Source: an uncultured Gaiellaceae bacterium (GTDB lineage: Bacteria > Actinomycetota > Thermoleophilia > Gaiellales > Gaiellaceae). Taken from it: a stretch of DNA of 64,000 nucleotides. Numbering within the stretch: position 1 is the stretch's first letter; each line of letters opens with the position of its first letter. The notes under the pieces are model-generated. The model did not search any database, was not told the origin of the DNA, and saw nothing but the letters and a program-made list of their open reading frames with translations. Of this stretch, positions 5,415 through 36,204 are shown one piece after another. The stretch is taken from positions 20,955 through 84,954 of the forward strand of contig CAVSRW010000017.1 of assembly GCA_963730405.1 (NCBI GenBank). The letters are read 5' to 3'. Position numbers and translations under genes: made by a program.

Positions 5415-6124
5415 GGGTCCTGCTCCTGCACGCCGGGATCGCCGACCGCCGCATGTGGGCGGCGCAGGTGGAGGCGCTCGAGGCAGCCGGCCACACGGTG
5501 GTGGCGCCCGACCTTCCGGGCTTCGGCGACGCCGCGCTCGAGCCGCCCACGGTCGACTACGTCGGCTTCGCCGCCGGTCTGCTCGACGGCCCGGCCGCGG
5601 TCGTCGGCTGCTCGTTCGGCGGGCGGGTGGCGGTCGAGCTGGCCGGCGCGAAGCCCGAGCTCGTCCGGAAGCTCGTCCTCGTCGCGCCCGGGCTGGCCTC
5701 GACCGAGTGGACGGAGGAGAGCAAGGCCGGCTTCGCCGAGGAGGAAGAGCTCGTCGAGCGGGGCGACCTCGCCGGCGCCGGCGCGCAGCAGGCGAGGATG
5801 TGGCTCGCCCCCGATGCCTCCGAGGAGGTTCGCCGGCTGACGGCAGCGATGACCGTGCGCTCGTACGAGCAGCAGCTGCCCGTCGACGGCGAGGTGCGCG
5901 CGTCGTGGCCGGAGCCCTCGGCCGAGACGCGCCTTCGCGAGCTGCGGCAGCCGACGCTCGTCGTCGTCGGCGCAGCCGACCGGCCCGAGCTTCGCTCGCT
6001 GGCCGAACGGATCGCGGAGGAGCTGCCCGACGCGCGCCTCGAGACGATCGCGGGTGCCGGCCACCTGCCGAGCCTCGAGCGCCCGGCCGAGCTGAACCGG
6101 CTACTGCTCGAGTTCCTCCAGTAG
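5411..6124 (+). CDS. alpha/beta-fold hydrolase
   Basis: VRVLLLHAGIADRRMW..VVGCSFGG (G-x-S-x-G elbow)..AGHLPSLERP. The GTG start overlaps the upstream stop (GTGA). Confidence 0.85.
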   Translation: MRVLLLHAGIADRRMWAAQVEALEAAGHTVVAPDLPGFGDAALEPPTVDYVGFAAGLLDGPAAVVGCSFGGRVAVELAGAKPELVRKLVLVAPGLASTEWTEESKAGFAEEEELVERGDLAGAGAQQARMWLAPDASEEVRRLTAAMTVRSYEQQLPVDGEVRASWPEPSAETRLRELRQPTLVVVGAADRPELRSLAERIAEELPDARLETIAGAGHLPSLERPAELNRLLLEFLQ

Positions 6125-6919
6125 CGCGTCCGAGAGCGAGGGCCAGGCGGTCGCCGCCCAGGGGCCGAACGACTCGTCCGCGACCGCGGCCGCGAGGAGC
6201 TGCCGCTCCGGGTCGATCCAGAGGAAGGTCGCCGTCCCCGGCTTGGAGCCGAAGTGGCCGTACGTGCGCGGCGAGTTGCGCGTCCCCGTCCAGTGCGGCG
6301 ACTTGCGCCCGCGCAGCTCGAAGCCGAGCCCCCAGTCGTTCGGGGTCTGGCGGCCGAACCCAGGCAGGACACCTTCGAGACCCGGGAACTGGACCGAGGT
6401 CGCCTCGGCGAGCGTCTCGGGCGCGATCAGGGTCGGCGCGAGCGCCTCGCGGCCGAAGGCGAGCATGTCGCCGAGCGTGCCGACGATGCCGCCGGCAGCG
6501 TCGCCCTCGAGCGTCGCCCCGAGTGCGAGCGGCTCCAGCACCGCTGCGCGGACGTACTCCGCGAACGGCATCTCCGTCCGCTCCGCCAGGTGCCGGGCGA
6601 GCGCGAGGTAGCCGCTGTTCGAGTAGACGCGCCGCTCGCCAGGGCGGCCGAGCGGCGTCGGCGAGTCCCAGGCGAGGCCGGACGCGTGCGCGAGCAGGTG
6701 GCGGACGGTCGAGCCCTCCGGGCCGGCCGGCTCGTCCAGGTCGAGCGCGCCTTCCTCGGCGGCGACGAGGGTCGCGTAGGCGACGAGCGGCTTCGTGACC
6801 GAGCCCCAGCCGAGGCGGTGCTCGACGTCGCCGTGCGCCGCGAGGACGCCGTCCGCCCCGGCCACGCCGGCGGCCTTGTGCTCGGCCGGCCAGCCGGCGA
6901 TCAGTTCCAGCGCGTGCAC
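6101..6919 (-). CDS. serine hydrolase, beta-lactamase/PBP-like family
   Basis: SVTK (S-x-x-K) and YSNSGY (Y-x-N) motifs in a 272-aa ORF. Confidence 0.85.
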   Translation of the reverse strand: MHALELIAGWPAEHKAAGVAGADGVLAAHGDVEHRLGWGSVTKPLVAYATLVAAEEGALDLDEPAGPEGSTVRHLLAHASGLAWDSPTPLGRPGERRVYSNSGYLALARHLAERTEMPFAEYVRAAVLEPLALGATLEGDAAGGIVGTLGDMLAFGREALAPTLIAPETLAEATSVQFPGLEGVLPGFGRQTPNDWGLGFELRGRKSPHWTGTRNSPRTYGHFGSKPGTATFLWIDPERQLLAAAVADESFGPWAATAWPSLSDALLEELEQ

Positions 6920-10384: not shown

Positions 10385-10816
10385 GTGTTCTGGCTCGACA
10401 CCGGCGCGGAGATGGAGCTCGAGGAGCTGCTCGAGGAGGGGCCGGTGCTGCTCGTCTTCTACCTCTTCGACTGGTCGCCGACCTGAAGCCAGGAGCTGCG
10501 CCTCCTGCGTGACAGGCGGCCGGAGTTCGAGCGGGCGGGCGTGCGCGTCTTCGGCGTCTCGCGCGACTCGCACTGGTCGCACCGGGCCTGGAAGGACGTC
10601 CTCGACGTGGACGTGCCGCTGCTCTCCGACTGGAACGGCTCCCTGGCCAAGCGGTTCGGCGCCGCGCGCGTCTGGCGCTGGATGGAGCAGGTGCCGCGGA
10701 GGAGCGCGTACCTGGTCGGCGAGGACGGTACGGTGCTCGGATCGTGGCGGTACGCGGACTCGGACGTGCCCGACTTCGACGAGCCGCTCGCGGCCGCGCG
10801 GGCGTTGCGGGACTAG
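10385..10816 (+). CDS. AhpE/Bcp-like peroxiredoxin with in-frame TGA (10484-10486) at the peroxidatic Cys position; candidate selenoprotein
   Basis: Same frame on both sides of the TGA: VFWLDTGAEMELEELLEEGPVLLVFYLFDWSPT-TGA-SQELRLLRDRRPEFERAGVRVFGVSRDS..PLLSDW. The track lists only 10541..10816. See findings. Confidence 0.65.
10500..10520 (+). other. candidate bacterial SECIS hairpin for the peroxiredoxin UGA
   Basis: GCC(U)CCUG-CGUGA-CAGG(C)GGC has 7 bp with one mismatch. It starts 14 nt after the UGA, and the apical loop contains GU at +22..+26. Confidence 0.4.
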
Positions 10817-12240
10817 CCGCCGCCCTCTATCTCGGGGCCGGCCTCCTCGCCACGTCGCCGGCCGTCTTCGAGACCGACCGCTTCCTCGGCTACGGCGAGC
10901 CACAAGCCGGCCGGGTCACGCCCGGCGACCACCTGCAGACCATCTACGGCCTCTGGCTGCCCGGGCACCAGCTCGCGCGCGCGGCGGCGCCTTGGCTCGA
11001 CCCCTACAGCTTCCAGCCGGAGCTCGAGCCGCGCGTGAACTTCGCCGCCTGGCCGTTCGCGGCGGTCTACGGCCCGCTGCAGGCGCTGCTCGGAACCGTC
11101 GCCGGCTGGAACGTCTTCGTGCTCCTGACCTACGTCGGCGCCGGCGGCTTCGCCGCGCTCTGGCTGCGCGCGCTCGGGCTCGGACTCGGGCCGGCACTCG
11201 TCGGCGGGCTTGCGTTCGCGCTCGCGCCCTACCGGGTCGCCCAGTCGACCGGCCACCTCCTCGGCCCGATCTCGATGCTGCTGCCGCTCGCCCTCTACGG
11301 CGTCGAGCGCCGACTGGTGCTGCTCGCGGCCGCCGCGCTCGCGTCGATCCCGCTCTCGGGCCAGGTCCACCTCGCCCTCGGCGCGATTCCGTTCGTGCTC
11401 GCGTACGCGCTCGCGCGGCGGCGAACGACGCTCGGGCTCGTCGCGGCAGCAACGGGCGCCGCGGCCGGCCTGCTCGTGTGGGCACTCTCGCTGCGCGACA
11501 CGGTCGAGCGGCCGTACGCCGAGGTCGAGCGCTACTCGGCGAGCGTCGGCGACTTCCTCGCCCGCGACCCGGGCGACTTCGAGCAATTTGTCTACCTCGG
11601 CTGGCTCCTCCCGCTCGCCGCCGTGGCCGGCGTCGGGTGCTTGTGTTTCAGAAACACAATCTCCTCCGGGCGCCGGCTCGCGCTCGTGCTCGGGCTCGGC
11701 GCGCTCGTTCCCTGCCTCCTCGCCCTCGGCTCGAATCTGCCCGGATACGGCTTCATCTGGAGGAATACGCCCCTGCACTCGACCCGGGTGCCCGAGCGGA
11801 TGCTCCCGATCGCGTGCCTCTGCCTCGCGGCGCTGGCGGCGGTCGCGGTCGCTTGTGTTTCAGAAACACAAGCCGCCGTCCGCGCCCGCGCGGTCGTCGC
11901 CGCCGCGGTCGTACTGGTCGCAGCCGACCTCTGGGTGCCGCTCTACGACCCGCTCGTCGCGGACGAGGACAACGCCGTCTACGACCGGGTCGCGGAGGCG
12001 CCCCCGGGACGGCTGCTGGAGCTGCCGGTGCTGCCGCCCGACGCCTACGCCGGCAGCGTCTACCTCTACTACTCGATGCAGGCGCCGCGCGAGCGGCCGC
12101 TCGGCTACGCGACCTCGGCGCCGCCGGAGGCGTTCCTGGTCGCGCGGCAGCTGCCGGAGCGGGCGGAGGAACTGGGTGTCAGCGTCGTCGTCGAGTACCG
12201 CGACGGCAGCCCCGAAAGGTTGCGAAGCAGTGAACGATGA
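10744..12240 (+). CDS. polytopic membrane protein of unknown function (possibly glycosyltransferase-C-like)
   Basis: 498-aa ORF with many hydrophobic helices and uniformly GC-rich third positions. The basic N-terminus precedes the first TM helix. It overlaps the peroxiredoxin 3' end by 73 nt. It carries two copies of the AT-rich palindrome in-frame. Confidence 0.7.
   Translation: MAVRGLGRARLRRAARGRAGVAGLAAALYLGAGLLATSPAVFETDRFLGYGEPQAGRVTPGDHLQTIYGLWLPGHQLARAAAPWLDPYSFQPELEPRVNFAAWPFAAVYGPLQALLGTVAGWNVFVLLTYVGAGGFAALWLRALGLGLGPALVGGLAFALAPYRVAQSTGHLLGPISMLLPLALYGVERRLVLLAAAALASIPLSGQVHLALGAIPFVLAYALARRRTTLGLVAAATGAAAGLLVWALSLRDTVERPYAEVERYSASVGDFLARDPGDFEQFVYLGWLLPLAAVAGVGCLCFRNTISSGRRLALVLGLGALVPCLLALGSNLPGYGFIWRNTPLHSTRVPERMLPIACLCLAALAAVAVACVSETQAAVRARAVVAAAVVLVAADLWVPLYDPLVADEDNAVYDRVAEAPPGRLLELPVLPPDAYAGSVYLYYSMQAPRERPLGYATSAPPEAFLVARQLPERAEELGVSVVVEYRDGSPERLRSSER
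11641..11659. repeat. AT-rich perfect palindrome copy R1 (TTGTGTTTC-A-GAAACACAA; flanks gc/tc)
   Basis: Read directly. The 9-1-9 palindrome has 6 G/C of 19 in a very GC-rich background. Translated in-frame as CLCFRNT. Confidence 0.95.
11851..11873. repeat. AT-rich perfect palindrome copy R2 (GCTTGTGTTTC-A-GAAACACAAGC)
   Basis: Read directly. The 23-bp palindrome is perfect. Translated in-frame as ACVSETQA. Its centre is 212 bp from the R1 centre. Confidence 0.95.
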
Positions 12241-31043: not shown

Positions 31044-33730
31044 TCGAGTTCACGCTCGACGGCAGGACCGCAACGGCCTCCGAGGGCGAGCTCCTCGTCC
31101 ACGCGGCGGCCCGGAACGGCGTCTTCATCCCGACCCTGTGCCACGACGACAAGCTGGCGCCGTACGGGGGCTGCCGGATGTGCGTGGTCGGCGTCGAGGG
31201 GGCACCGCGGCCGCTGCCGGCCTGCGCGACCCGTGTCGCCGACGGAATGGTCGTCTCCACGGACACGAACGTGCCGCAGCTGCGGAGGACGCTGACCGAG
31301 ATGCTCCTCTCCGAGCACCTGAACGCCGACCCGGGCGGGCGGCCCAACGAGCTGACCGATCTCGCCGCGGAGCTCGGCGCCGAGGCGCCGTTCCTGCTCC
31401 CGGACGCGAAGCGCGAGCCCTACGACGACCGGAACAAGCTGATGGGCTACGAGCCGGACACGTGCATCCTCTGCAACCGCTGCGTCCGCTACACGCAGGA
31501 GGTGATGCAGTGCTCCGCGCTCTCGCTCGAGGGGCGCGGTCCCGAGGCGCGCATCGTCCCCACCTGGGAGCGGAGCTGGCTCGACACCGAGTGCGAGCTC
31601 TGCGGCGGCTGCCTCTCGACGTGCCCGACCGGCGCGATCTACGAGAAGTTCCTCGAGGGCGCCGGCGTCGAGGAGCGCGCGCTCGAGCAGGTCAAGACGA
31701 CCTGCACCTTCTGCGGCGTCGGCTGCCAGCTCGACCTCAACGTCGACCCGGACACGAAGCGGATCGTGAAGGTGACCTCGAAGCCGGAGTACGTCTCGAA
31801 CGAGGGCAACCTCTGCGTGAAGGGGCGCTTCGCCTTCAATTTCGTCCACCACCCCGACCGCCTGACCGAGCCGCTCGTTCGGGGCGAAGACGGCGAGTTG
31901 CACCCGACGACCTGGGAGGACGCGCTCCAGGTCGCCGCCGACGGGCTGAAGGGGGTGATGGAGCGCCACTCGCCGCAGCATGTCGGCGTGCTCAGCTCGG
32001 CCCGGCTGACGAACGAGGAGAACTACCTGATCCAGAAGCTCGCCCGGACCGGCCTGCAGACGCACTCGGTCCACTCGTGCGAGGCCACCTGACACGCTCC
32101 GACCCTCTACGGCCTGGTCAGGTCGTTCGGCAGAGGCGCCTCCACCAACTCGATCCCGGAGATCGACAACGCCCGCTTCCTGCTCGTGATCGGCTCGAAC
32201 ACGACCGAGGCGCACCCGGTGCTGGCGTTGCGGATCAAGAAGGCGGTGCGGAACGGCGCAACCCTCGTCGTCGCCGACCCCCGCGCGATCTGGCTGACGA
32301 AGCTCGCGAAGCGGCACCTGCAGCTGCGACCCGGCTCCGACGTCTGGCTGCTGAACGCGCTCATGCACGTGATCCTCGAGGAGGGGCTGCAGGACGATGC
32401 CTACATCGCCGAGCACTGCGAGGACTTCGACGCGGTGCGCGATGTGGTCGCCCGCTACACCCCTGAGGACGCCGAACGGGTGACGGGCGTTCCGGCCGAG
32501 GCCATTCGGGACACGGCGCGCGAGTACGCGACCGAGCGGCACGCGGCGATCTTCTACACGCTCGGGATCACCGAGCACGCCTGCGGCGTCGACAACATCT
32601 GGTCGCTCGCGAACCTCGTCCTGATGACGGGCCACCTCGGCTACGAGTCGACGGGCCTGAACGCGCTGCGCGGCCAGAACAACGTCCAGGGCCTGAACGA
32701 CTCCGGCGCGAACCCGCACTACTTCCCCGGCTACCAGTCCTGGGACGACCCGGAGGTGCGCGAGAAGTTCGCAGCCGCCTGGGGCGTCGACCTGCCCGAG
32801 CGCGCCGGCTACCGGCTCGACCAGATGATGTCCGGGCTCCACGACGGCCGGATCAAGGCGCTCTACCTGGTCGGCGAGAACCCGGCGCAGACGGAGCCGA
32901 ACGCCCACCACGTCGAGGAGGGCCTCCGGCAGCTCGAGTTCCTCGTCGCGCAGGATCTCTTCCTGAACGAGACCTCGCGGCGGCACGCGGACGTCGTCCT
33001 GCCGGCATCGAGCTTCGCCGAGAAGGACGGCACGTTCACGAACACGGAGCGGCGGATCAACCGCGTCCGCGCCGCTGTGCCGCTCCCGGGGAACGCGCGC
33101 GGCGACCGGGAGATCGTGATCGCGCTGGCTCGCGCCCTCGGCTGCGACTGGCCCGAGTATCCCGACGCCGAATCGGTCTGGGACGAGCTCGCCGACCTCT
33201 CGCCGAACTGGTTCGGAGTCCGCTACCCGCGACTGGAGGAGCACGGGCTGCAGTGGCCGTGTCCGAACGAGGATCACCCGGGGACGCCGTTCCTGCATGC
33301 GCCGTCGCCGTCACGGCCGAACGGAAAGGGGAAGTTCCATCCGGTCGAGTACCAGCCGCCGATCGAGGAGCCGGACGCCGAGTTCCCGTTCGTCCTCTCC
33401 ACCGGCCGGACGCTCTACCACTACAACTCGGCGACGATGACCATGCGTGAGGACGGGATCACCGACAAGCAGGTCGAGCCCTTCTTCGAGATCGCGCCCG
33501 AGGACGCCTCGGCGCTCGGGGTGGCGGAAGGCGAGTGGGTACGGCTGGTCTCGCGCCGCGGCGACCTGCAGGCGCGCGCCCAGCTCTCCGATCGCGTCTA
33601 TCCCGGGCTCGTCTGGATGGCGCTCCACTTCGCAGAGGCGCGCGTGAACTGGCTCACGCACGATGTCGGCGACCCGCTGATCGGGACGCCCGAGTACAAG
33701 GTCTCGGCCGTGCGGCTCGAACGCGTGTGA
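31040..33730 (+). CDS. fdhA: formate dehydrogenase catalytic subunit, selenocysteine-containing (UGA at 32090-32092)
   Basis: A single frame joins the tail of track ORF 28442..32092 to 32186..33730. It has NuoG-like N-terminal Fe-S clusters, then ..HSVHSCEAT-U-HAPTLYGLVRSFGRGASTNS..LLVIGSNTTEAHPV.., a Mo/W-bisPGD fold. Confidence 0.92.
32109..32126 (+). other. SECIS hairpin of fdhA
   Basis: ACGGCCU-GGUC-AGGUCGU has 7 bp including one G-U pair. It starts 17 nt after the UGA and has a GGUC apical loop. Confidence 0.65.
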
Positions 33731-34425
33731 TCGGGTCGCCGCGCCGGCACGTGGAGGAGTGCGAGTCGACGCAGCTCCTGCTCGGGCCGGACGATCCGGA
33801 AGGGGCGATCGCGACGACCGACCACCAGACCGCCGGCCGCGGCCGTCGCGGCCGGAGCTGGGTCGAGGCGCCCGGGACGGCGGTGCTCGTGTCCGTTCTG
33901 CTGCGGCCGCCGCCGGAGCGCGTCGCGCCGCAACTCTCGCTCGTCGGGGGCCTCGCGGCGGCCATGGCGGCCGAGGACGCGCTCGGACTGGCGGCGCAGA
34001 TCAAGTGGCCGAACGACGTCATGGTGAACCGGCGGAAGATCGCAGGCGTGCTCGCCGAGGCGCGGGACGGGATCGTCGTACTCGGGATCGGGATCAACGT
34101 CAACCAGAAGCGCGAGCAGCTGCCGCTCGATGCGCGCGTGCCCGCCGCGTCCCTGCGGACGGTCGACGGCCGCGAGCGCGACCGGGAGCAGGTGCTCGAC
34201 CTGCTGCTCGCCCACCTCGACCGGCTCTACGGCGCGTGGCGGGAAGGCGGCCTCGACGCCGTCTACGAGGATCTCGGCGCACGCGACTTCCTCCGCGGCC
34301 GCCGGGTCACGGTCGACGGAGCCGCCGGCACGGCGCAGATGATCACGCGCGACGGCCGCCTCGCCGTCGAGACCGACTCAGGCCCGATCGAGGTCGAGAG
34401 CGGCGAGGTCGCGTTCGAGCGCTGA
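33727..34425 (+). CDS. birA: biotin--[acetyl-CoA-carboxylase] ligase (no N-terminal HTH)
   Basis: HQTAGRGRRGRSW..KWPNDV..KIAGVLAE. GTGA overlap with fdhA. The 3' end overlaps convergent mobA by 48 nt. Confidence 0.88.
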   Translation: MIGSPRRHVEECESTQLLLGPDDPEGAIATTDHQTAGRGRRGRSWVEAPGTAVLVSVLLRPPPERVAPQLSLVGGLAAAMAAEDALGLAAQIKWPNDVMVNRRKIAGVLAEARDGIVVLGIGINVNQKREQLPLDARVPAASLRTVDGRERDREQVLDLLLAHLDRLYGAWREGGLDAVYEDLGARDFLRGRRVTVDGAAGTAQMITRDGRLAVETDSGPIEVESGEVAFER

Positions 34426-34968
34426 CAGCTCCTCGGGCGTGTTCGCATTCGCGAGCAGCCGTGGGTCTGCGTCGACCCGGCGCGGGTTGACGCCGCGGAG
34501 CGACCAGTCGCCGGATGCCAGCCTCCGCTCGAGCTCCGGCAGATCGGTGCGGGCATAGGCGCCCGGCAGCGGCCCCGTCTGCGTGACGGCGCGACGCTCG
34601 GCCAGCTCTCGCAGCAGCGACGGCGTCACGAGCGGGCAGTCGACCGGGAGGAAGACGGCCATCTCGGTCGCAGCCGTCCGGAGCCCCGCGATCACGCCGA
34701 CGAGCGGTGCCCGGGGCTCGGCCGGCTCGACGGCGACGTCGAAGGGCAGCTCGAGGTCGCCCTTGCCGACCGCGAGCCTCTGCGGGAACGCCTCGCCGAG
34801 AATGCGCCAGGCGCGCTCCGCGAGCGTCTCGCCGGCGAAGAGCGCGAGCGCCTTCGGCGACCCGAAGCGCGTCGACGCGCCGCCGACGAGCAGCACCCCG
34901 GTGCAGGCCGAGACTTTGTGTTTCAGAAACACAAGCGTCCGCCCCGCGGCGGCCAACCGCATGACCAT
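34378..34968 (-). CDS. mobA: molybdenum cofactor guanylyltransferase
   Basis: GVLLVGGASTRFGSPKAL..PVDCPLV motifs. The start is uncertain: ATG 34968 or 34962 lie inside a hairpin, and GTG 34932 lies inside palindrome R3. Confidence 0.8.
   Translation of the reverse strand: MVMRLAAAGRTLVFLKHKVSACTGVLLVGGASTRFGSPKALALFAGETLAERAWRILGEAFPQRLAVGKGDLELPFDVAVEPAEPRAPLVGVIAGLRTAATEMAVFLPVDCPLVTPSLLRELAERRAVTQTGPLPGAYARTDLPELERRLASGDWSLRGVNPRRVDADPRLLANANTPEELSALERDLAALDLDRA
34916..34936. repeat. AT-rich perfect palindrome copy R3 (TTGTGTTTC-A-GAAACACAA-GC; left flank ct)
   Basis: Read directly. Lies in the mobA 5' region and translates as VFLKHK on the minus strand. Confidence 0.95.
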
Positions 34969-34986
34969 GCGGATCCGCGGAGCGGA
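34938..34986 (-). promoter_or_regulatory. nested GC-rich hairpin enclosing both candidate mobA ATG codons
   Basis: Outer stem TCCGCCCCGCGG / CCGCGGAGCGGA pairs at 11 of 12 positions. Inner stem is CCGCATG / CATGCGG. Both CATG arms are the ATGs at 34968 and 34962. Confidence 0.5.
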
Positions 34987-34992
34987 AGAGGC

Positions 34993-35015
34993 GCTTGTGT
35001 TTCAGAAACACAAGC
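34993..35015. repeat. AT-rich perfect palindrome copy R4 (GCTTGTGTTTC-A-GAAACACAAGC)
   Basis: Read directly. Begins 2 nt after the fdhD stop. Its centre is 79 bp from the R3 centre. Confidence 0.95.
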
Positions 35016-35017
35016 TC

Positions 35018-35815
35018 TCACGCGACCACCCGCCACGCCTCCGTGTAGACGTTGAGCGAACCGCCGCGGACGAAGCCGCAGAGGGTGATCCCGCGGTCGG
35101 CGGCGAGCTCGACCGCGAGCGACGAGGGCGCGCCGACCGCGACGAGCAGCGGGCAACCGGCGACGGCGGCCTTCTGGACGAGCTCGAACGAGAGGCGGCC
35201 GCTGACGCAGAGGATCGAGTCCGCGAGGGGCAGCAGCCCGTCGAGGAAGGCGCGGCCGAGCACCTTGTCGAGTGCGTTGTGGCGCCCGACGTCCTCACGG
35301 ACGCAGAGTAGGTCGCCCGCGGCGGAGAAGAGCCCGGTCGCGTGGAGACCGCCTGTGGCCTCGAATGCCTCCTGGGCGCCGCGCAGCAGGTCGGGGAGCC
35401 GGCCGACGAGCGTGGCCTCGACCTGCAGCGTGCTCTCGATCCGAGGCGCCTCGACCGCGATCGCCTCCAGAGCGCCCTTGCCGCAGACGCCGCAGGAGGA
35501 CGAGGTGTAGAAGCTCCGCCGCAGACGGTCGACGTCGGCGCCGGGCGCCTCGACCTCGACCGTGTTCGCGGCGAGATCGTCGGGCACGCGCGCCGCGAGC
35601 GGCCGCAGCCCCTCGGAGAGGCAGAACCCGATCGCCAGCTCCTCGTCGTGGCCGGGCGTCCGCATCGTCACGGCCACGGGAACGCCGCCGATCCGGATCT
35701 CCAGCGGCTCCTCGACCGCGACGAGGTCGCCCGTCTCACCGCCCGGCACCCGCGTCACCCGCACACGGGCGGTGGTGTGAGCGGGCGTTCTCACGTGCGC
35801 AAGCGTACAACGCAA
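35018..35815 (-). CDS. fdhD: formate dehydrogenase accessory sulfurtransferase
   Basis: EEPLEIRIGG..SSSCGVCGK..GGLHA..DVGRHNALDKV..SGRLSFELVQKA. The start is TTG 35815 or GTG 35794. Confidence 0.9.
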   Translation of the reverse strand: MRCTLAHVRTPAHTTARVRVTRVPGGETGDLVAVEEPLEIRIGGVPVAVTMRTPGHDEELAIGFCLSEGLRPLAARVPDDLAANTVEVEAPGADVDRLRRSFYTSSSCGVCGKGALEAIAVEAPRIESTLQVEATLVGRLPDLLRGAQEAFEATGGLHATGLFSAAGDLLCVREDVGRHNALDKVLGRAFLDGLLPLADSILCVSGRLSFELVQKAAVAGCPLLVAVGAPSSLAVELAADRGITLCGFVRGGSLNVYTEAWRVVA

Positions 35816-35850
35816 GGTTTCTCGCGACCCGGCATCTCAATTGTTAGGAA

Positions 35851-36204
35851 ATGATGGAGTCCGCCGCAGACTTCGGAACCGGCCTTCGCGCCCACCTCGG
35901 CCTGGAGCAGGCCGAGCTGGAGCTCGTCGCCTCGCCGCAGGCCGCGCAGAAGCCCCTTCAGGCCACGCCCGACGACGACGAGCCCGACCCGCGGGAGCAG
36001 GCCGAGCTCGACGCCCTCGAGGAGCTCGAGAGCGAGCTGCTCGAGCGGGAGCGCGATCTCGCTCGCCGCGAGGCCGGCCTCGCGGCCCGGGCCGGCGCCC
36101 TGCTTGCGACTGCCCAGGCGCTGTACGACGAGGTGCTCGGCGGCGGTCCCTCGCCCAACGACGACGAGCTCGCCCGCCTCCGGCGGCGGAAGAGCATGGC
36201 CTGA
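35851..36204 (+). CDS. acidic coiled-coil hypothetical protein
   Basis: 117-aa ORF behind an AT-rich promoter-like gap with AGGAA SD. It is Glu/Leu/Ala-rich (ELDALEELESELLERERDLARREAGL). No family recognised. Confidence 0.5.
   Translation: MMESAADFGTGLRAHLGLEQAELELVASPQAAQKPLQATPDDDEPDPREQAELDALEELESELLERERDLARREAGLAARAGALLATAQALYDEVLGGGPSPNDDELARLRRRKSMA

Follow-up and report, generated by a model that had tools for sequence, protein, structure and literature searches.

Several kinds of short dispersed repeats are known from bacterial genomes. In bacterial interspersed mosaic elements (BIMEs) of the RIP type, in which two repetitive extragenic palindromes (REPs) flank a binding site for integration host factor (IHF), a conserved central motif is located between the two palindromes. 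Rickettsia palindromic elements (RPEs) are found as in-frame insertions in housekeeping genes, where they occupy tolerated loops and linkers and are retained across species. In mycobacteria, the mycobacterial interspersed repetitive units (MIRUs) are small repeats in the junctions of operon genes, and short open reading frames (ORFs) running through the repeat overlap the stop and start codons of the neighbours. Here, we compare with these systems a palindromic unit located between fdhD and mobA in DNA of an uncultured Gaiellaceae bacterium (assembly GCA_963730405.1, contig CAVSRW010000017.1, positions 20,955 to 84,954 of the forward strand). This stretch of 64,000 nucleotides with a G+C content of ~72% is referred to as the window, and all coordinates without a locus name refer to it. 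For REPs, it has been reported that the palindromes have GTAG or CGTC as an unpaired tetranucleotide on one of their sides (PMC3733652) and that some copies lie inside genes (PMC3733652, PMC3116915). Context on the Rickettsia elements can be found in PMC1458961 and PMC10969869.

With a probability of roughly 80%, the unit is an inserted copy of a Gaiellales-specific, non-coding palindromic repeat that resembles REPs, BIMEs and MITEs (miniature inverted-repeat transposable elements) and that gave mobA a 5' end buried in structure. Its REP/BIME/MITE-like nature is what the dispersal of the repeat, two presence/absence polymorphisms, the common interior of non-orthologous copies and the absence of the unit from orthologous mobA junctions point to. 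The insertion itself, the membership in a repeat family, the predicted structure and the geometry of the reading frames are established by the comparisons described below.

As a whole, the repeat element proper (34910-35019) is a long imperfect palindrome, with one arm spanning 34910-34963 and the other 34966-35019, and is organized as palindrome-core-palindrome. Its outer palindromes R3 (34916-34934) and R4 (34995-35013) are identical 19-mers of the form TTGTGTTTC-A-GAAACACAA, whose centres are 79 bp apart. R3 extends to a 21-mer (34916-34936) that matches R4 exactly across those 21 nt, while R4 is embedded in the 23-mer GCTTGTGTTTCAGAAACACAAGC (34993-35015), a perfect 11-1-11 palindrome. The latter ends 2 nt short of the present fdhD stop codon (35018-35020), which leaves the 19-mer 4 nt away from it. 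The interior (34938-34986) consists of a 12-bp outer stem with one mismatch, TCCGCCCCGCGG (34938-34949) paired with CCGCGGAGCGGA (34975-34986), around the apical hairpin CCGCATG-AC-CATGCGG (34957-34972). On the plus strand, this hairpin includes GACCATGCGG (34963-34972), which differs by one mismatch from the core motif AACCATGCGG of the family. The hairpin also holds the two candidate ATGs of mobA, 34968 and 34962. A third candidate start, GTG 34932, is contained in R3, which reads LVFLKHK in the mobA sense and harbors a TGA (34925-34923) in another frame. All three starts are in the mobA frame on the minus strand. Each coordinate that the preliminary description, made from the letters alone, had given for the palindromes, their 79-bp distance, the outer and inner stems and the three starts was confirmed on the sequence.

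The flanking genes are both encoded on the minus strand. The gene-caller version of the mobA ORF (34378-34968, 196 aa) begins at ATG 34968; the MobA-like NTP-transferase domain sets in at residue 24, and the insert together with a likely adjoining relic encodes residues 1-22 (see below). The upstream gene fdhD (35018-35815) belongs to the FdhD/NarQ family. Within the window, the 19-mer core TTGTGTTTCAGAAACACAA is present at exactly four positions (11641, 11853, 34916 and 34995), against an expectation of 0 from 100 shuffles; allowing 1-3 mismatches yields no additional copies. The unit is not an assembly artefact, since it is identical in an independent assembly of the same organism (ENA ERZ25039504 contig_62276). 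The 19-mer moreover occurs in metagenome-assembled genomes (MAGs) of many projects, based on both short and long reads, which speaks against an assembly or linker artefact as well.

The junction was compared with 80 metagenomic loci encoding FdhD relatives with 68-84% amino acid identity. The palindrome is found in none of these 80 loci, even with up to four mismatches, and in the majority, just 3-9 nt separate the end of the FdhD match from the beginning of the MobA match (query residue 23 on, TGVLLVGG). When the window flanks are projected on these relatives, ~70 loci turn out to be without 116-119 bp. In the relatives, the mobA start is a GTG in ccGTGgcgg, a conserved sequence at the 3' end of fdhD; the MobA N-terminus of one of them (L119) reads M-A-D-R-V-T-G-V-L. 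The unit is thus absent from ~70 orthologous junctions. The proposal that it is a small inserted element with palindromic ends, one of three offered in the preliminary description, is strongly supported by these overlapping junctions without the unit, as well as by the recurrence of its architecture at 29 independent intergenic loci of other Gaiellales genomes.

By parsimony, the ancestral junction would have read ...TGG CGG GTG GCC TGA CC GGG GTG..., with FdhD ending in ...W-R-V-A-stop and MobA starting with M-A-G-G-L-T-G-V-L-L. Because the mobA GTG overlapped fdhD, the two genes would have been translationally coupled. In the window lineage, ~118 nt of element (35026 to 34909 on the minus strand, with ends uncertain by a few nt) would then have entered the last fdhD codons; accordingly reconstructed, the last codons and the present stop codon of fdhD stem from inserted DNA. 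This insertion would have cut mobA off from its ancestral GTG and shifted the frame. On the minus strand, GCCTGCA (34902-34908) is, judging from the junctions of L162, L193 and L134, likely a relic of the original fdhD end GCC TGA plus one C. The added C would have converted the relic stop TGA into TGCA (34905-34902), whereby the stop would have vanished and the element-borne ATGs would have come into frame with the MobA body. From the ancestral mobA GTG (35036-35034, inside the fdhD 3' end), a 37-codon ORF (34923-35036, minus strand) runs through R4 and the interior to the TGA in the centre of R3, where it stops 4 nt past GTG 34932 (counted from the last G of GTG to the T of TGA).

In the three closest FdhD relatives (L116-L118), fdhD and mobA are separated by a methyltransferase gene that overlaps the stop codon of fdhD; on L118 (3270-3989), it was identified by Pfam as encoding a class I S-adenosylmethionine-dependent methyltransferase. 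Hence, the fdhD-mobA junction has undergone more than one invasion among these bacteria.

The palindrome is widely dispersed. A scan for the exact 19-mer, with one genome per species, returned at least 172 copies in at least 115 stretches from ~35 genomes. Nearly all listed stretches are from Gaiellaceae/Gaiellales MAGs, which were generated in many studies and with several sequencing technologies. The general form is TTGTGTTTC-W-GAAACACAA, often with flanks RGA[GC][CT] that extend the symmetry, so that the unit spans 19-31 bp; beyond position -9, no fixed motif was found in the flanks of the copies. Among the 172 exact matches listed, the centre base is A in 83, T in 88 and C in one case; in addition, C/C is found in L198. 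The 926 kb of listed stretches contain these 172 exact copies versus 27 with 1-5 mismatches, and degenerate copies keep the 7-bp arms TTGTGTT/AACACAA and vary in the central 5 nt. A phage origin was rejected, with a sole match in 2.9 million viral contigs. In the literature, we found no paper with the sequence and nothing relevant on palindromes in Gaiella, and the family appears to be previously undescribed.

Intergenic copies are mostly arranged as doublets, i. e. palindrome-core-palindrome, of which 47 with a spacing of 50-93 bp were found at 29 non-orthologous loci among the matches listed. At 12 of these 29 loci, the core AACCAWGCSG is present in a small hairpin, as compared with 0.2% of background segments. 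The spacings fall into classes of 58-60, 69-70 and 79-80 bp, and orthologous doublet loci alternate between the 58 and 69 classes. The doublets occupy nearly the whole intergenic regions: a stop codon is found at a distance of 2-20 nt on one side and a start codon at 11-52 nt on the opposite side. They are faced by gene 3' and 5' ends about equally; an enrichment in 5' regions suggested by a first crude count was gone with a better method. A mini-array resembling clustered regularly interspaced short palindromic repeats (CRISPR) is ruled out because the putative spacers of different loci have sequence in common. Likewise, the core ATG does not represent a conserved start of a small ORF, as frames and stops vary among doublets (judged by eye).

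Two further loci deserve mention. Three consecutive palindromes with 60-bp spacing, two of a variant form (see below) and one standard, are found at L031:1243-1381, which reveals that arrays longer than doublets exist. L023 (CAVSAP010000006.1), a contig of 1.39 Mb assigned to an uncultured Chloroflexia, contains a doublet whose flanks match the Gaiellaceae locus L034, and its Chloroflexia label or binning is probably wrong. The 19-nt perfect palindrome, which is common to genomes across the order, may serve as a simple sequence marker for Gaiellaceae contigs, as exemplified by this Chloroflexia-labelled MAG with an orthologous Gaiellaceae locus.

About a third of the copies (53-62 of ~170 among the matches listed) lie within coding frames, where they are read as CVSETQ, LCFRNT or LVF[Q/L]KHK in at least 10 unrelated gene families. 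Among the hosts, Pfam confirmed an ABC ATPase, whose two domains flank the copy, and SelB, where the copy is in the linker that joins the G domain to domain 2, as well as TrpE, trpC, ferrochelatase, an ATP-grasp ligase, an AMP-binding enzyme and a GNAT protein; LipA/LipB are among the genes with copies inside or beside them. No common function was found among host and neighbour genes. The full-size doublet occurs between genes only, while the in-gene form is a single palindrome of ~21-24 nt (7-8 codons). A 24-nt (8-codon) in-frame copy in trpC of L103, a Gaiellales MAG (505-523, in the IGPS domain), is missing in the orthologues L043, L019, L060 and L053 and thus constitutes a clear second case of presence/absence, after the mobA junction. 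In ferrochelatase, about a third of 120 homologues have the palindrome-encoded loop; many of the others are decayed in the centre (LVxxxHK), and the rest possess a loop of equal length (+/-1 residue). This copy looks ancient and as if it had been decaying from the centre outward. Since the ferrochelatase loop has the same length (+/-1 residue) without the palindrome, there is no general rule that in-gene copies are length insertions.

The two remaining copies in the window, R1 (11641-11659, read LCFRNT) and R2 (11853-11871, read CVSETQ), represent the same 19-mer and are found 212 bp apart, in different frames, in one gene on the plus strand (10744-12240). This gene is continuous, its frame is backed by codon-position G+C, and it encodes a 498-aa membrane protein without a Pfam match. 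Both copies follow hydrophobic stretches that by eye resemble transmembrane segments, and both are kept in most of 120 homologues.

The element most likely moves by means of a protein that, on DNA in hairpin or duplex form, recognizes the conserved arms of 7 bp, TTGTGTT/AACACAA. Several observations weigh against an inserted, REP/BIME/MITE-like mobile repeat and have to be set against the evidence presented so far. In the 8-kb pieces of other genomes, no gene for a transposase or a protein resembling REP-associated tyrosine transposases (RAYTs) adjoins any copy. A clean target-site duplication is readable at neither of the two polymorphic sites (mobA junction and trpC of L103); at the former, the fdhD side reads GCGTGA and the mobA side GCCTGCA, which might represent a 6-bp duplication that has decayed or, as proposed above, what is left of the former stop codon. 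Nor was a donor copy seen whose interior is nearly identical to that of the window unit. In addition, the doublet spacing is periodic at ~10 bp (Rayleigh R ~0.48, p ~0.006, one value per locus), a pattern that binding of a protein to duplex DNA would explain no less well than transposition.

A further observation of this kind is the degree to which the sequence is maintained. In orthologues of the gene harboring R1 and R2, third codon positions are invariant in 13/15 cases inside the palindromes versus 33/162 outside. As this set of orthologues was ascertained through the palindrome itself, a second set of homologues was picked by protein similarity only. In three of these with canonical peptides, the palindromes are nucleotide-identical at a third-position identity of 62-66%, and they consist of rare codons. 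Two other homologues exhibit, at both R1 and R2, the variant TTGTGTTG-NNN-CAACACAA (8-3-8, with the middle three bases variable; L202:1198-1216, L202:1410-1428 and L203:1243-1261), with a partly decayed right arm, AACACTC, in R2 of L203. This variant is also present in L006, L031, L042, L074 and L106 and pairs with the standard form within some doublets, while L011 possesses two neighbouring in-gene copies with the same point variant. Neighbouring copies seem to change together. Neutral decay is inadequate to account for these data, and the copies are either under selection or homogenized between neighbours. Such maintenance is not predicted for a purely selfish, decaying element and points to a host-level role or to homogenization.

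These findings lend some weight to the possibility that the palindromes are sites of a dimeric host DNA-binding protein, for example a global regulator or a nucleoid- or chromosome-organizing factor, with cooperative binding to paired sites or looping between them, and with the pair at mobA being a functional operator pair that gates this gene. We consider this explanation doubtful as an alternative, yet it is compatible with sites that have been spread by a mobile element. It would readily explain the perfect two-fold symmetry with a free centre base, the preserved 7-bp arms around a variable central 5 nt in degenerate copies, the clustered doublet spacings with a ~10-bp period, between the 58 and 69 classes of which orthologues switch, as well as the nucleotide-level conservation inside genes. 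The 9-1-9 or 7-7-7 geometry of the palindrome would resemble that of Fur/DtxR boxes and of the HspR-associated inverted repeat (HAIR) CTTGAGT-N7-ACTCAAG. However, neighbour and host genes are without a common function, about a third of the copies are in coding sequence, and non-orthologous doublets have a common interior that looping operators do not need. The pair at mobA is also missing at ~70 orthologous junctions, and there is no consistently linked regulator, with the sole recurrent site-flanked small gene being devoid of detectable DNA-binding homology. The earlier suggestion of two operators that loop the mobA start region is not supported in the form of a mobA-specific pair. Its weaker form, palindromes bound by a protein, agrees with the ~10-bp spacing period, and some protein probably recognizes them.

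An equally tentative extension would be that the family constitutes more than selfish DNA, namely a maintained system of genome-wide extent, which a dedicated, putative Gaiellales protein would read. Identical copies in essential genes across genus-level divergence, the joint change of R1 and R2 to the variant and the helical phasing would fit this idea. If true, the system might serve a host role such as chromosome organization, the punctuation of replication or repair, or the coupled control of many operons, into which new copies such as that at mobA would be recruited.

The small gene referred to above encodes a conserved 118-aa protein (P0121-P0129) and is flanked by palindromes in several genomes (L198:5911-6333, with the gene at 6001-6357; L044, L055, L082, L087 and L014). 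One palindrome precedes the start of the gene by ~70 nt, a second falls in the final codons (EACVSETQA), and the gene adjoins a sigma-70 family gene. Searches of Pfam, NCBIfam and PDB sequences gave no match for the protein. Its AlphaFold2 model is all-helical with a mean predicted local distance difference test (pLDDT) score of 75, and the best Foldseek matches are helix-turn-helix domains of transposases with non-significant E values (>= 0.77). As a cognate binder of the palindromes it is thus a weak lead only, given the absence of a significant sequence or fold match. In the loci examined, no palindrome pairs enclose a transposase, and pairs 387-737 bp apart hold ordinary genes or this 118-aa protein. 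The recurrent neighbour genes of the copies are housekeeping genes. The HxH plus Y..NP signature of RAYTs was not found in six-frame translations of the 115 listed loci and the window.

To return to the mobA junction and the inserted repeat, the element is predicted to be highly structured. As RNA, the unit has a calculated folding energy of -73.5 kcal/mol (z = -7.8), and as single-stranded DNA of -45.2 kcal/mol (z = -8.7). Its transcript can fold into three hairpins or else into a single long one, in which the three starts are buried. The minimum-energy fold has R4 paired with R3, ATG 34962 and GTG 34932 fully paired, and the A and U of ATG 34968 paired, with its G in the apical loop. The cross-pairing of R3 and R4, which had been put forward as an alternative fold, is therefore the favored one in the RNA folding model, and the proposed sequestration of the start codons by a hairpin is borne out in this prediction, with all three wholly or largely paired.

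The present mobA ORF would open inside the element, at ATG 34968, ATG 34962 or GTG 34932, none of which is preceded by a strong Shine-Dalgarno sequence. Because the predicted fold buries the three starts, translation of mobA is probably low or dependent on ribosomes that open the structure. Melting could be accomplished by ribosomes that terminate at the fdhD stop codon at the base of the hairpin. Alternatively, ribosomes that start at the ancestral GTG might read through the 37-codon ORF and re-initiate at GTG 34932, which would give a MobA N-terminus of near ancestral length. Simple scans of 34300-35900 detected neither an intrinsic terminator nor a sigma-70 promoter. Taken together, the mobA start now resides in foreign, strongly structured DNA, and the ancestral coupled start is lost. 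Annotation and expression models of the formate-dehydrogenase maturation genes of this organism should allow for a new mobA start.

Given start codons buried in a predicted hairpin, an influence of the element on the translation of mobA is probable, though as a side effect. A different matter is whether the unit evolved as a dedicated cis-regulatory RNA leader for mobA translation, i. e. as an attenuator, thermosensor or ligand sensor, as had also been envisaged. The very stable structure, the wholly or largely paired candidate starts and the position of the unit exactly at the mobA 5' end would be in line with this assumption, but it is very improbable as the origin of the unit. Around 70 orthologous junctions do without it, no Rfam family reaches the gathering score anywhere in the window, and the same element is found in all kinds of intergenic regions near unrelated genes and even inside such genes. 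Furthermore, the orientation of the core relative to the flanking genes varies (~8 antisense versus 4 sense by a hand tally). What stands of the leader proposal is the predicted structure that buries the starts, with regulation solely as a side effect.

Least probable of all is an invertible DNA switch, in which recombination between the palindromes would flip the 56-bp core and change the strand of the ATGs: the palindromes are indeed mutual inverted repeats, and the core motif is flipped between orthologous doublets of different species at two other loci (L016 versus L023/L034; L051 versus L071/L083), but the unit of the window is identical in both available assemblies, flipping its core would change little because the core is itself nearly palindromic, the flip in the L051 case seems limited to the apical hairpin and looks evolutionary rather than phase-variable, and there is no recombinase gene nearby. 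Thus, the inversion envisaged in the preliminary description has a counterpart among other members of the family and none between the two assemblies of this locus.

On its other side, mobA is convergent with a biotin-protein ligase-like gene (33730-34425, plus strand). The 3' ends of the two genes overlap by ~48 nt (34378-34425), and the overlap is called likewise in the second assembly (L197).

How, then, does the inserted Gaiellales repeat relate to described systems? As in the REPs, BIMEs and REPINs (REP doublets forming hairpins) of Proteobacteria, short palindromic units are present at many loci, typically as two units around a short spacer, and can fold into either small hairpins or a single long one, the latter being predicted for the window unit; vertical inheritance and persistence across species are common to both as well. 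Yet, the GTAG/CGTC tag of REPs is absent from the flank profile (flank consensus RGA[GC][CT]) and ends none of the 25 commonest 6-nt flanks. Unlike the imperfect REP units, the Gaiellales units are perfect palindromes, about a third of the copies are intragenic and in frame, and there is no bias toward gene 3' ends. Also, no RAYT gene was found in the DNA examined around the Gaiellales copies, and the host is a high-GC actinobacterial order. With no tag, a distribution that is not mainly extragenic or 3', and no RAYT seen in the DNA examined, the element is outside the definition of the described REP superfamilies.

The resemblance to RPEs is one of behaviour alone, i. e. of in-frame copies in genes, such as that in trpC of L103 or those in linkers of SelB, TrpE, the ABC ATPase and others. 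RPEs are 100-150 bp long and unrelated in sequence, whereas the in-gene form in Gaiellales measures ~21-24 nt. Like MITEs, which are non-autonomous derivatives of DDE transposons, the unit is ~110 bp long, lacks coding capacity, is an inverted repeat as a whole, shows insertion polymorphism between close relatives and can supply new gene ends. In contrast to MITEs, each end of the Gaiellales element is itself a palindrome, and neither a clean target-site duplication nor a parent insertion sequence with the same ends was found for it. A parallel to MIRUs can be seen in the ORF from the ancestral GTG, which ends 4 nt past GTG 34932; MIRUs, however, are tandem direct repeats and not palindromes, and a coupling role at mobA would be our inference.

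The family shows signs of mobility and, at the same time, of long-term maintenance at the nucleotide level, in a poorly studied yet very abundant group of soil Actinomycetota. It hence offers a new system for asking what keeps REP-like sequences alive in bacterial genomes. In comparison with all of the above systems, it is an unusual combination of known behaviours, with doublets like those of REPINs and in-frame copies like those of RPEs, joined to a notable maintenance of sequence.

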